Shown here piece by piece: positions 5,966 to 50,768 of a stretch of 64,000 nt of DNA (within the stretch, counting starts at the first letter, position 1; the number at the start of each line of letters is the position of its first letter). This stretch comes from Escherichia phage RB14. The notes beneath the pieces are model-generated. The model did no database searches and was not told the DNA's origin. It was given only the letters and a program-made list of their open reading frames with translations. The stretch is from the sequence record NC_012638.1; one strand, 5' to 3'. The position numbers and the translations under genes are program-made.

Positions 5966-6457
5966 TTATGCATAGCGAGCTTTGCTGTAGTGTTTAATCC
6001 AACTTTCAGGAATGACTTTGTATGTTCCTAAAAATACCGCGTTGTATAACTTAACGCCATCTTCTACCCATTGATCAGTAATGTATGCACACATAGCGCG
6101 AGTACGCCGAGGAAGTGGTTGTTCACCTTCGGTAAATTCGAATTCATAAGGAGCAATGAACTTAATAGCCTGACCGAGTTTCCACTTAAAGTCTACACCT
6201 ACATGTGAAGTATCAATCGTTTCAATTCCTTTAGCAGGAACAGCTTTCAAAAACGCAGATTCAAGAAATTTCGCACGAACATAGCCAAACTGAGGTTTAG
6301 ACTTTCCATCTTTAGGAATGATACGCACTTTTACTTCAGAATCTTCATCTTTAACGCCATGTTTAAGCTGAATGCTTACAATTTCAATCAATTTTCCTGC
6401 TGCTTTAGAACGGGATTTATCAGATACACGAGCAATTTCACCAATATTAATAATCAT
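5966..6457 (-). CDS. MotB-position protein, 163 aa; paralogue of the next ORF
   Basis: position between the goF/cef-like ORFs and dexA equals T4 motB (162 aa); C-terminal motif DQWVEDGV shared with 6534..7076. Confidence 0.5.
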   Translation of the reverse strand: MIINIGEIARVSDKSRSKAAGKLIEIVSIQLKHGVKDEDSEVKVRIIPKDGKSKPQFGYVRAKFLESAFLKAVPAKGIETIDTSHVGVDFKWKLGQAIKFIAPYEFEFTEGEQPLPRRTRAMCAYITDQWVEDGVKLYNAVFLGTYKVIPESWIKHYSKARYA

Positions 6458-20276: not shown

Positions 20277-20639
20277 TTAAAAGAATTTAAATTTTTTCTT
20301 TGACCTTTTATTAAATGCATCTTGCAGTTGCATTGTAATACATTTTTCTACATGAGGAGCTAACTCAGCTTTTCTTTCTTGGTCAAGAACAGCAAAGTCC
20401 ATTACAACCTTTCCATTAACCCAATCTAGTTTTGTTACATATACTATATGCGTAGAACCATCTTCTAGTTTAATGACAATCTCCTGGATAACATTTTCCA
20501 TAGCGGATTTAATTATCTTAAGAGATTCATTAAAAAGACGTTCTTTTCTTTCTTCTTCCCCCTCCGAAGAGGGGGATTCATCGATAATTTCTAGATCTAA
20601 GTCTAAATCATCTTTATTCATTAAATTCTTCCATATCAC
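20277..20639 (-). CDS. 40: gp40-position protein, 120 aa
   Basis: position between uvsX and 41. Confidence 0.6.
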   Translation of the reverse strand: MIWKNLMNKDDLDLDLEIIDESPSSEGEEERKERLFNESLKIIKSAMENVIQEIVIKLEDGSTHIVYVTKLDWVNGKVVMDFAVLDQERKAELAPHVEKCITMQLQDAFNKRSKKKFKFF

Positions 20640-21795
20640 TTAACTGCTCGAGGTCAGTTTCTAAATCAGCAGCTGATTTACTTTTACTTTCTGGAGATTT
20701 AAATTTTTCAACCTTTGAGTTAATCAATTCATCAACTTCAGCTTCAACAATTTCATTACTATCAATAGCACCTAACTGATAAGCACGTTTAATAGCATCT
20801 CGGAATGGTTGATGCTTAAATAAAGGACCCCAGAATGTAGTGCAGTTGGTATCTTTTGCGCGCCAAGATTTTTCTTCGCGAATCATCTCGCCAGTTTCTT
20901 CATCAAGAAATTCACGAGCATACCAGCCATTTTTAGGTTTTACTACAAATCCTAATTCTAGAGCCATATCTAACAATCCAGAATAAGGATCGATACCACC
21001 ATCAAATTTAACATCAATAAAGAATTTACTTTTTTCTTTAACGGTACGAGATTTTTCTACATTTAGAACAAATTGATACCCCTGAAGATCAGAACCATCT
21101 TTAATCTGACGCTTACCGATAATGAATACTGTATCAGCCGAATACATTACGCCTGTACCACCTGTCATCACGGTTTTACTAAACATTTCAATTGTTTCAA
21201 TTGTATGGTTAACCGCAACACATGGAATATTTTTAATGCTAAAATAAGGAGTAACAATACGGAATAATGACTTCAGTGATTTAGCACGAGTCATATCTGC
21301 CACAGATTTTTCATTCAAGGCATCTTCCGTTTCTTTCTTAGAAGCCATATTACCGATTGAGTCGATGAATACAATAACTTTTTCACCGCGCTCAATAGCT
21401 TCAAGCTGATTCACCATATCAATTTTCAGCTGTTCAACTGACTGGATTGGCGTATGAATTACTCGTTCCGGGTCAACTCCCATGGATCGCAAATAAGCTG
21501 GAGTAATACCAAATTCACTATCATAGAATAGACAAACCGCGTCAGGATATTTGTTTAAATATGCCGCAACCATAGTCAAAGACATATTTGATTTAAAGTG
21601 TTTAGAAGGCCCTGCGAAAATAGTTAAACCAGACTGCATGCCGCCATCAATCGCACCAGAAATAGCAATATTAAGCATTGGGATTTTTGTACGGATTACA
21701 TCCTTTTCATTAAAGAATTTAGATGTAGTCAGTTCAGCAGTCATTTTAGAAGTGGAAGCTTTAATCAAACGGGATTTTAAATCTGCAATAGACAT
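20614..21795 (-). CDS. uvsX: UvsX recombinase (RecA-like), 393 aa
   Basis: Walker A GPSKHFKS; about 90 percent similar to T4 UvsX as I recall. Confidence 0.95.
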   Translation of the reverse strand: MSIADLKSRLIKASTSKMTAELTTSKFFNEKDVIRTKIPMLNIAISGAIDGGMQSGLTIFAGPSKHFKSNMSLTMVAAYLNKYPDAVCLFYDSEFGITPAYLRSMGVDPERVIHTPIQSVEQLKIDMVNQLEAIERGEKVIVFIDSIGNMASKKETEDALNEKSVADMTRAKSLKSLFRIVTPYFSIKNIPCVAVNHTIETIEMFSKTVMTGGTGVMYSADTVFIIGKRQIKDGSDLQGYQFVLNVEKSRTVKEKSKFFIDVKFDGGIDPYSGLLDMALELGFVVKPKNGWYAREFLDEETGEMIREEKSWRAKDTNCTTFWGPLFKHQPFRDAIKRAYQLGAIDSNEIVEAEVDELINSKVEKFKSPESKSKSAADLETDLEQLSDMEEFNE

Positions 21796-21872
21796 TCATT
21801 TTTTCCATAGGCATCATTATATTTTCCTCACTGGTTAAAGATAGAGTAATTATAACACAATAAATTTAGGCA

Positions 21873-22721
21873 TTAATCAACTGCTATTGGATGAATAGCA
21901 TTAAACTTATGAAATGCTTCTGATTTTTCTTTACGCGAAACACACATGCGAAGAACCTTTAATGGCTCGTCTTCTTCACCCAACGATTTTCGTTTTTCAA
22001 TATTAGAAGTTTTCCAACGAGCTTGCTCTGGAAACTCTCTATTGATTTGCTCAAGCGCTCTATTATGTTTAGAATTACTACGAATTGAACTACACCCGCC
22101 AGGAGCTTGTGCTTTTCCAGATACAACCAGATATTTGAACAAGGCCAAATGCGGATAACCTTGATTAATTAAATTGAGAAATGCATACATATCTTCGCAT
22201 AAATCAATTTTTCCATACCCAATTTGTTCTGTCGTAAGTTTTCCGAGGTCATACCATGTATTCGTAAATCCATATGAATTTTCACGATAATTACCCCAAG
22301 ATGAAGTAATTTTAAAAATTGGTAGACGAGCATGGCCATGATAATACCCGCAATCCATGGCATCCTCAACATATTGAATCAATTCATAGAACTGTTCACG
22401 AGTCAATTGATTGACTTTATCTACACAACGACGGTCATCTCTTTTTCGCATTGAACTCATACGAATAGTAGTATCATCGTCAATCATCCAGATTCGTTGA
22501 CCTGCATACATATCAGTAATTGCTTTACGAGTACCGGCAATTCCGTTTACATCATCAGGAATAGTTATAATTTTAGCTCTAGACCCATAGGCATCATAAT
22601 AAGCTTTTTCTTCATGTTCACGTACTACGATATGAGGTTCATAATCAGTCGGAAACATATCAAGGGCAGAAACTGCCCCTACACGTTGATAGCTCGGAAT
22701 TACGAATTGAATCATTTCCAC
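21873..22721 (-). CDS. putative GT-A-type glycosyltransferase at the beta-gt locus, 282 aa
   Basis: DxD motif (IWMIDDDTT); sits between uvsX and gene 42 where T4 has beta-gt, but bears no resemblance to the 351-aa T4 beta-gt. Confidence 0.6.
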   Translation of the reverse strand: MEMIQFVIPSYQRVGAVSALDMFPTDYEPHIVVREHEEKAYYDAYGSRAKIITIPDDVNGIAGTRKAITDMYAGQRIWMIDDDTTIRMSSMRKRDDRRCVDKVNQLTREQFYELIQYVEDAMDCGYYHGHARLPIFKITSSWGNYRENSYGFTNTWYDLGKLTTEQIGYGKIDLCEDMYAFLNLINQGYPHLALFKYLVVSGKAQAPGGCSSIRSNSKHNRALEQINREFPEQARWKTSNIEKRKSLGEEDEPLKVLRMCVSRKEKSEAFHKFNAIHPIAVD

Positions 22722-23452
22722 TCACCGTTATAATCTTTTTTCACAATATGAGTTTCGCCAGTATTCCACCAATGATCAACCAAGTAAAAATGACGAGAAT
22801 ATACATGAAGACTTCCAACATTCCATATAATAGAACCTGCTTTATACTGACGAGTTGAATCGCCGGCATTCAAATCAGATACTAATTTATCTAATACGTA
22901 TTTTTGCCATGCATAATCATTACGGAATCCGAAGACCACGTCATTTGAGCGCATGCTTACTACTGCATTGACTTTCTTATCACGAATCAGGTACTGTACT
23001 GTATTAGTACACATGAAATCTGACATACCATCTTTATTGTAGTCAAATTGCATGGATGGACGAGTATAAATCATGATACCACGTCGAGAATCAGGATTTT
23101 GACCAAGTTCAGCTAAACACATATCATACTGGGCATAGTTATCTTCTGACCAGATAGCCCAACCATAATTCGAGTTAATTTCGCCTTTAGAAGATGCTAC
23201 CTGCTGCCAAATCTTTGGTGTTTCACCTGGAATATCTTTAACAAACAAGCTCTTAGATTTATACCATTCAAGTTCACGCTGAATGTATTCATCATTAAGA
23301 GCGCCAAAAATAAACGGTTCATCTGCTACAAATGATGCGCCAATAATTTCAATAGTTTTAACACCAGTTTTATCAACTACGAAATCTTTTTCCTTTAATG
23401 CAGTTCCCAAATAAAAACGGATTTCTTCAACTGTCATAGAGTCATTAATCAT
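22712..23452 (-). CDS. 42: dCMP hydroxymethylase gp42, 246 aa
   Basis: near-identical to T4 gp42 as I recall; thymidylate-synthase-like fold. Confidence 0.9.
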   Translation of the reverse strand: MINDSMTVEEIRFYLGTALKEKDFVVDKTGVKTIEIIGASFVADEPFIFGALNDEYIQRELEWYKSKSLFVKDIPGETPKIWQQVASSKGEINSNYGWAIWSEDNYAQYDMCLAELGQNPDSRRGIMIYTRPSMQFDYNKDGMSDFMCTNTVQYLIRDKKVNAVVSMRSNDVVFGFRNDYAWQKYVLDKLVSDLNAGDSTRQYKAGSIIWNVGSLHVYSRHFYLVDHWWNTGETHIVKKDYNGEWK

Positions 23453-23459
23453 TTAAACC

Positions 23460-23609
23460 TCAATTGATGCATTCATATTTAAATTGTAACAGTAATAAAC
23501 CCCACCCTATGATAAGAGTTGGAATCATAGCAGGAACTGTTAAGCTATAGTATATACTTATTATAACCATCAAGATTAAAAGCAACACTGCTATAATTTT
23601 GCTTTTCAT
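23460..23609 (-). CDS. small membrane protein, 49 aa (not in ORF table)
   Basis: my translation MKSKIIAVLLLILMVIISIYY...; start overlaps the imm stop (ATGA). Confidence 0.35.
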   Translation of the reverse strand: MKSKIIAVLLLILMVIISIYYSLTVPAMIPTLIIGWGLLLLQFKYECIN

Positions 23610-34070: not shown

Positions 34071-34088
34071 AAAGGGCCGAAGCCCTTT
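34071..34088 (-). terminator. UUCG hairpin after a-gt
   Basis: aaagggc-cgaa-gcccttt inverted repeat. Confidence 0.55.
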
Positions 34089-35289
34089 ATTTTGTAATAA
34101 TATCAAACTGTTCTTTAAAGCAGAAGCTTGAATCTTGATGCTGATACAAAAATTCATATGCTTTTTCTCGCTCACGGTCATAAAGAGCTCGGTCAGATGA
34201 CAGTTCTTTAATACGTTCAAACGTTGATTCCATATCATTTTCATCAAACCAAATGATACCGCTATCATGCGAGGTCAAAGGAGTATTATCAACACGGAAT
34301 TTTAAATTTTCGCCAGTAGATTTCCAAAATACCGGAATTGTTCCACATGCACCAAGCTCGAGATGAGTATATTCTAAAGAGCGTTGTAGATATTTTTTAT
34401 CCAACTTACTCAACTGATAACCAAAACCGGATTTACTCATACGTTCAAGCATTTCGCTATTTACATAACGGTCAAGAATTTGCGTTGGCAAATTAGGAGC
34501 AATTTTAATTTGGTCTACTTGATGAAGACGATAATACTCGTATGGAATTCCTTTTTCTTTAATGGGAATGAACGCTGGAGAACGTTCCAGACCTTCCATA
34601 ATAGTACTTAGTCCTGCAGGTTTAAGATGTTTTTCATGAAAATCAAACATCTGATAAAAACCTTTCCACGTAGTCGTACGACCAATCCAACGGTTAATAT
34701 TCATGTTAATTTCAGAAACATCTTTCCAGTAGGTTGACCGAACCTTCGCAATATCCATAGGAGGCTGAAAGTTATATACGGTCGGTGCTTCTTCAATATC
34801 ATCAAACAGAGAAACTGTTTCAGGATACCATTCTTTCATCAGAACTTTATTAAAATCGCCATTATCAGAATGACTAAAAATAACATCAGCTCGACGAACA
34901 GTTTCTTCTAATCCCAAATTTCGACGCAAAGAAAGAGAAGAATGGTCATGTTGATAAACTACAACACGAACCGAAGGTTTAATGTTATCAATAATTTTTT
35001 TATAGTTATTAATAGTGTCTTCTTCAACTGAAGTAGCAGGAACTGAATTGATAATTAGAATATCACAATCATTTACCAGCTTAAGTGTTTTATCGTATTC
35101 TTTTGCCAATAAAACCGGAATTGAAAATGATTTATAATCATGTGCACAGTTACGAGTAAATGATTTATCTTTAGCATAAACCAAAGTTACTTCATGACCA
35201 TTTTTAATAAACCAATCACGTTGCTCGAGTGAGAATTTTGTCACACCACAACCTTCAAGACCTCGAGCCATAAAAATACATACTTTCAT
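34087..35289 (-). CDS. a-gt: HMC alpha-glucosyltransferase, 400 aa
   Basis: near-identical to T4 alpha-gt as I recall. Confidence 0.9.
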   Translation of the reverse strand: MKVCIFMARGLEGCGVTKFSLEQRDWFIKNGHEVTLVYAKDKSFTRNCAHDYKSFSIPVLLAKEYDKTLKLVNDCDILIINSVPATSVEEDTINNYKKIIDNIKPSVRVVVYQHDHSSLSLRRNLGLEETVRRADVIFSHSDNGDFNKVLMKEWYPETVSLFDDIEEAPTVYNFQPPMDIAKVRSTYWKDVSEINMNINRWIGRTTTWKGFYQMFDFHEKHLKPAGLSTIMEGLERSPAFIPIKEKGIPYEYYRLHQVDQIKIAPNLPTQILDRYVNSEMLERMSKSGFGYQLSKLDKKYLQRSLEYTHLELGACGTIPVFWKSTGENLKFRVDNTPLTSHDSGIIWFDENDMESTFERIKELSSDRALYDREREKAYEFLYQHQDSSFCFKEQFDIITK

Positions 35290-50048: not shown

Positions 50049-50768
50049 TTACGATTCTTCTAAATGTCTTTTCTGAAAAGTTGATACCATACTACGATAC
50101 GGTTCATTTGGATACCCATGTTTTATAGCTTCCTTTGTAAATTTTCTCCATCCATATTTAGTTTCTTTCCAAAGCTCGAATAATTCATCTTCATATTGCC
50201 ATATAGTTAAATGAGAACGCTTTGCAGCTTTAATTCCATTAATATGCTTTTCTTTTACTACAGGATTGCTTAGTTTCTTTTTAATAATATTACTAACTTT
50301 TCTAACAAAAACTGGGTCCTTATATCGTTGAGAAGTTTTTATTGAAGTGTTTAATTTAGCTTCCGGCGTGGATGTAACCTCTTTCATCTTTTTCTTCATA
50401 TGCTGTATATGATTAGGATTTTTCCATAAATTTATAGAATGCTTTTTGCATTTTATCCTAGTTTCATCTGCAACCTTTCCTCCTTCACCCCCGTATGACA
50501 GGTTAACACAGTTTTTTCCATATTTCAATTTACCTGCCATGATATATAATATTTCAGCTTGTACCATTTTATCATAATTATCAAAAACTTCTAAAACCGT
50601 TTTTGATAATATGTGGTCATTTGACACTTTTACACGTTCTATATAATTTCCACTACCAACATACGAATCATTGATGTTATTAGTTATATGTCGACCATAA
50701 TAGTATTTCTTAATACCTGTCTTTAAATTTAATATTTCAGTTTTATAGATAGTAAAATATTTTTTCAT
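50049..50768 (-). mobile_element. free-standing GIY-YIG homing endonuclease (Seg-like), 239 aa
   Basis: N-terminal TIY...YYG-R module (FTIYKTEILNLKTGIKKYYYGRH) and basic C-terminal half; start overlaps the upstream gene stop. Confidence 0.6.

Follow-up and report, generated by a model that had tools for sequence, protein, structure and literature searches.

The stretch of DNA analysed, referred to here as the window, comprises 64,000 nt of the Escherichia phage RB14 genome (sequence record NC_012638.1). On its minus strand, gene 42 (22712..23452), which encodes dCMP hydroxymethylase and was identified by a match to Pfam Thymidylat_synt (1e-15), and uvsX (20614..21795; Pfam T4_UVSX_C and RecA) flank a single gene. 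The gene 42 region shares 94.8% DNA identity with its T4 counterpart. In the ORF list, the reading frame between the two genes covers 21873..22721, contains QRIWMIDDDTTIR and has 282 codons if counted from a GTG. The original prediction of a 282-aa protein at 21873-22721 therefore holds for the reading frame, but not for its length and start. The GTG at 22721 is the start of the longest possible frame and is probably not used, and translation probably begins at the ATG at 22715..22713. The resulting coding sequence (21873..22715, stop codon 21875..21873) encodes 280 aa, which is the length annotated in T2. It is named here ba-GT (also ggt, or TAGT), for beta-glucosyl-HMC-alpha-glucosyltransferase. 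The start codon overlaps the TGA stop codon of gene 42 (22714..22712) in an ATGA sequence at 22712..22715 that is annotated likewise in T2, and this arrangement suggests translational coupling of the two genes.

The window, T2 and T6 share the order gene 42 - ba-GT - uvsX. A small ORF for a hydrophobic product of 49 aa lies between gene 42 and imm (23460..23609, minus strand); it has no Pfam match, and its equivalent in 236Ecol005PP carries the annotation 'uncharacterized 5.6 kDa protein'. On the other side, ba-GT is separated from uvsX by a 77-nt spacer, and no copy of the homing endonuclease gene segA was found at the locus by tblastn with T4 SegA. The only SegA-like match comes from a distant GIY-YIG relative of T4 SegA (tblastn, 22% identity, E 1e-6) at 50073..50708 on the minus strand, well away from the glucosyltransferase locus; it probably represents a further homing endonuclease gene. 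No second TAGT copy was detected by tblastn within the 64-kb window.

A consensus scan for a gene-specific sigma-70 promoter remained at background, with 15 promoter-like sites as compared with 12.7 expected. The spacer includes an extended -10 element, TGTTATAAT (21849..21874, minus strand), and a TGCCTAA element is located 11 nt upstream of its TATAAT. Judged by eye, the arrangement, which is absent from the sigma-70 scan list, resembles a T4 MotA-box middle promoter for uvsX. The terminator scan gave a single terminator-like hairpin, the G+C-rich TAGGGGCAGTTTCTGCCCTTG at 22661..22681 (minus strand). It sits inside the coding sequence, in codons 12-18 of ba-GT, and hence was not taken as a functional terminator. 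The hairpin is kept in T2, T6 and 235Ecol030PP, and might form in the mRNA close to where translation begins.

The gene for the DNA alpha-glucosyltransferase (alpha-gt), which makes the alpha-glucosyl-hydroxymethylcytosine (alpha-glucosyl-HMC) acceptor of ba-GT, is located elsewhere in the window, at 34087..35289 on the minus strand (Pfam AGT, 1.8e-237). Its product is identical to T4 alpha-gt at 366 of 400 positions (92%); alpha-gt is thus retained, as originally predicted.

A Pfam search with the 280-aa product gave TAGT (TET-associated glycosyltransferase, PF20691) as the sole match at E <= 1, with a score of 38.9 bits against a gathering cut-off of 27.5; residues 5-209 align to positions 2-205 of the 205-position profile. 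Residues 2-277 match PHROG 842 (phrog_842), 'beta-glucosyl-HMC-alpha-glucosyltransferase', at 2.2e-89, and phmmer against PDB chains returned nothing meaningful (best E 1.6). At the DNA level, sequences at least 90% identical over the full length of the gene were found by megablast in 473 phage records, so the reading frame does not arise by chance. Nearly all of these records are from Tequatrovirus phages of Escherichia, Shigella, Yersinia and Salmonella, T2 being included at 98.6%.

Its closest known counterparts occupy the same locus. The T2 enzyme (BBC14657.1; gene b-gt/ggt/ba-gt) likewise consists of 280 aa, is encoded between gene 42 and uvsX with the same ATGA overlap, and is identical to the window protein at 278 of 280 positions, the exceptions being His11 and Ser251 in T2 in place of Arg11 and Pro251. 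The T6 enzyme, which serves as the TAGT reference in published work (PMC13216743), is about 99% identical and differs by Y40N, D55G and R107H, apart from a one-residue deletion in record AP018814. SOLLY_044 of phage vB_Eco_Solly is identical at all 280 positions, and only synonymous changes separate the two genes (98.4% DNA identity). These alignments support the suggestion in the original prediction of gentiobiosyl-HMC as in T2 and T6. With a probability of about 0.93, the gene at 21873..22715 is an ordinary Tequatrovirus ortholog of the T2/T6 beta-glucosyl-HMC-alpha-glucosyltransferase.

In T4, the interval between gene 42 and uvsX is occupied by the gene for the 351-aa beta-gt (NP_049658.1; Pfam PF09198) and by segA, whereas the slot in the window has no segA. 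The two glucosyltransferase genes occupy the same slot, after gene 42 and before uvsX, but their products are unrelated. BLASTP between the window ba-GT and T4 beta-gt showed no similarity (best E 2.2), and no T4 beta-gt-like sequence was found by tblastn anywhere in the 64-kb window (best E 1.4). An assignment of ba-GT as a T4-type beta-gt of the GT-B class was rejected on these grounds and for want of a PF09198 match, and the expectation of a DxD glycosyltransferase unrelated to T4 beta-gt between uvsX and gene 42 is confirmed. Both enzymes are inverting, since each transfers glucose from UDP-glucose into a beta linkage. They differ in fold, which is GT-B in T4 beta-gt and GT-A in ba-GT, and in acceptor, which is bare HMC in DNA for T4 beta-gt and the glucose of alpha-glucosyl-HMC for ba-GT. 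Crystal structures of T4 beta-gt contain bound Mn2+ or Mg2+, and its description as metal-independent is therefore an oversimplification.

The original prediction had further presented the beta-gt locus as one occupied by an unrelated gene. The unrelated gene is there, but its presence is not unusual: ba-GT was found in 473 phage records and T4-type beta-gt in 29, and among the beta-gt matches listed most are T4 itself. Thus, ba-GT at this locus is the majority state in Tequatrovirus and the T4-like coliphages, and T4 is the exception. This agrees with a published survey, where alpha-GT with TAGT is the common pairing and the alpha plus beta pairing of T4 is rare (PMC13216743), and with the reported synteny of TAGT and T4 beta-gt (PMC13390438).

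The order in which the two genes came to the locus is suggested by a relic in T4. The 3'-terminal 25 nt of ba-GT (21871..21895, minus strand) recur in T4 with 24 of 25 matches (E 1e-5), at 6239..6263 of L002 (NC_000866), where they lie between beta-gt and segA, immediately upstream of segA. Phages of the 235Ecol030PP type have the order gene 42 - TAGT - segA - uvsX, and the relic marks the exact point from which they are homologous to T4 (L005 1501..). Phages that have beta-gt and lack segA, such as 236Ecol005PP, keep 13 nt of the relic (L006 2001..2147). A relic of the TAGT gene in T4 suggests that beta-gt displaced TAGT and not the reverse. By this comparison of sequences, a TAGT gene resident in the T4 lineage would have lost its body to a beta-gt cassette, and the TAGT state would be ancestral at the locus.

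In 236Ecol005PP, the T4-type beta-gt is annotated as two coding sequences that overlap (L006 947..2001), suggesting a frameshift. Each of them bears the name 'beta-glucosyl-HMC-alpha-glucosyltransferase', as do the true T4-type beta-gt genes of RB55 and RB59. Public annotation thus swaps the names of the two enzymes, and the names are not to be trusted unless the sequence is checked.

An exhaustive profile search of the TAGT family gave 2165 representatives at E <= 1e-3, of which 747 reached E <= 1e-10. Conservation was judged from this search, an earlier homolog search having given 11 proteins, using an alignment of the window protein with 151 full-length representatives (152 sequences). The DxD-type motif formed by Asp79-Asp80-Asp81 (codons at 22473..22481, minus strand) is close to invariant, with D79 in 150, D80 in all and D81 in 145 of the 152 sequences, and the DDD motif is also invariant in alignment A1. 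Such near-invariance across the family indicates that the motif is a genuine conserved feature and no chance tripeptide. Arg11 (CGT, 22683..22685, minus strand), in the N-terminal IP(S/T)xxR motif, is present in all 150 sequences that have no gap at this position; in T2 it is His (CAT). In the 'ED' motif, Glu174-Asp175 (22191..22196, minus strand), D175 is found in 152 and E174 in 120 of 152 sequences, and Gly206, Gly207 and Arg212 are found in 151, 152 and 149 family members, respectively. The window ba-GT has R11, D79-D81, D175, G206, G207 and R212, each 95-100% conserved in the 152 sequences, and with them the TAGT core motifs IPxxxR, DDD, ED and GGC(S)xxR.

An AlphaFold2 model of ba-GT, built from a nine-sequence alignment, was of moderate confidence (mean pLDDT 72.5, pTM 0.73) and weak at residues 131-150 and 203-211 (pLDDT < 50), the latter segment including the conserved GG motif. 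The predicted structure matched GT-A-type folds only, i.e. a single Rossmann-like nucleotide-diphospho-sugar transferase fold, with D79-D81 located in the N-terminal half, directly after a predicted strand (74-79). An AF3 model of a TAGT enzyme has likewise been described as GT-A and sister to GT2 (PMC13216743). The cellular GT2-type GT-A enzymes (SpsA, TarP/TarS, RmlT, and the cellulose and hyaluronan synthases) share 6-16% sequence identity with ba-GT, which differs from them in its acceptor, a sugar on DNA, and in having no membrane or accessory domains.

Formation of a beta-1,6 product from UDP-alpha-glucose indicates that ba-GT belongs to the inverting transferases. On the model of GT2 enzymes, Asp79-Asp81 would most likely bind a divalent metal and the diphosphate of UDP-glucose, Arg11 would most likely contact the nucleotide, and Asp175 would probably act as the catalytic base of this inverting GT-A enzyme. 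From the DxD motif only, we infer that the activity depends on a divalent metal.

The chemistry of the pathway is taken from the literature, onto which the gene identity, context, motif conservation and fold class established above can be mapped. Gene 42 would make hydroxymethyl-dCMP, so that the phage DNA contains HMC instead of C. The alpha-gt would then attach an alpha-linked glucose to most HMC residues, and ba-GT would add a second glucose from UDP-glucose via a beta-1,6 linkage to give gentiobiosyl-HMC. Glucosylation of alpha-glucosyl-HMC to gentiobiosyl-HMC by this enzyme has been described in T2 and T6 (PMC13216743), and a T6 ba-gt deletion has been described as leaving only alpha-glucosyl-HMC (PMC11078745).

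Published values for the product differ widely, gentiobiosyl-HMC amounting to about 5% in T2 and 72% in T6. By HPLC/MS, the DNA of Solly and six other phages consisted of about one third 5-hmdC and two thirds alpha-gentiobiosyl-mdC, with traces of alpha-glucosyl-mdC and no beta-glucosyl form, and the DNA of EL, BGP and Geo showed a 1:2:2 ratio (PMC13390438), from which a diglucosylation of about 40% was derived for that group. Given that the ba-GT is identical to that of Solly and that the window also contains alpha-gt and gene 42, DNA of the T6/Solly type is expected in RB14. From the sequence, we infer that the virion DNA would contain about one third bare HMC and about two thirds alpha-gentiobiosyl-HMC, and no beta-glucosyl-HMC.

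This pattern is uncertain mainly in its quantities, as near-identical enzymes go with diglucosylation from 5% to about 67-72%. Expression, or factors other than the ba-GT gene, could determine how far diglucosylation proceeds. Such published differences, and the fact that the window enzyme differs from that of T2 at two positions only, would accommodate an ortholog working at a low, T2-like level, giving about 5% gentiobiosyl-HMC and leaving about 70% of HMC alpha-monoglucosylated. This is considered unlikely, since the window enzyme is identical at 280 of 280 positions to that of Solly, the DNA of which contains about two thirds gentiobiosyl-HMC, and since one of the two positions is Arg11, which is present in 150 of 150 family members and is replaced by His in the T2 lineage only. 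Hence T2, and not the window phage, is the likely outlier.

The His11 codon of T2 (CAT, LC348380, L001 4037..4039) corresponds to 22683..22685 of the window in the DNA alignment, and the exact variant (R11H) was found only in eight T2/SV76 records. Two laboratory T6 records are also altered at conserved positions, each by a private lesion of its own. In MH550421 (L004 7951..7953), Gln10 is replaced by a TAG amber codon, and the coding sequence is annotated from Met20, with 261 aa. In AP018814 (L007, about 1135), one GAT of a (GAT)3 run is lost, which shortens DDD to DD and the protein to 279 aa. The lesions in the T6 records may have arisen in the stocks or through errors of sequencing; the stop at Q10 was rejected as a natural feature of T6-type genes, the exact variant being private to one record. 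The window copy has neither R11H nor the Q10 amber codon nor the DDD deletion. As a tentative reading of these sequences, which we hold to be possible but somewhat doubtful, the classical difference between about 5% gentiobiosyl-HMC in T2 and about 72% in T6 may be due to R11H as a private hypomorphic change in T2, and laboratory T-even stocks may repeatedly gain lesions in a ba-gt gene that is dispensable or costly on laboratory hosts. If R11H is indeed hypomorphic, this would concern the relatives of RB14 more than RB14 itself, the copy in the window being the wild-type reference in its consensus form.

A changed specificity, i.e. use of another sugar donor or direct glycosylation of bare HMC in place of T4 beta-gt, has some basis in the breadth of the TAGT family, with its 2165 representatives, and in the occurrence of members in phages that have neither alpha- nor beta-GT, which implies that specificity varies across the family (PMC13216743). 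However, the window protein is 99-100% identical to enzymes of phages with measured gentiobiosyl-HMC and no beta-glucosyl-HMC, which leaves essentially no room for altered specificity, and this explanation is regarded as highly improbable. The lesions in the laboratory T6 records (MH550421 and AP018814) demonstrate that the ba-gt gene can be damaged, but a non-functional remnant is hardly credible for a window copy that is full length, keeps every conserved residue and the coupled ATGA start, and encodes a protein identical to that of a phage rich in gentiobiosyl-HMC.

Assignment of the gene as the ordinary T2/T6-type ortholog bears on the interaction of the phage with its hosts, as ba-GT decides whether HMC carries one glucose or gentiobiose, with a published effect on sensitivity to host defences. 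The glycosylase Brig1 degrades DNA rich in alpha-glucosyl-HMC (that of T4, T2 and T6 Δba-gt) and spares the mostly gentiobiosyl-HMC DNA of T6. The T6 ba-gt deletion mutant is more sensitive to Brig1 (PMC11078745). The deglucosylase BapA is inactive on gentiobiosyl-HMC, according to a 2026 preprint, and restriction enzymes of the GmrSD type have been reported to cut all these forms of HMC. These phenotypes are known from the literature. Publications also cover what the gene encodes, its synteny, the assignment of the fold to GT-A and the effects on host defence, and no new biology is involved. The practical value of the assignment lies in annotation, where the T6/Solly-type modification pattern can be given for the phage.
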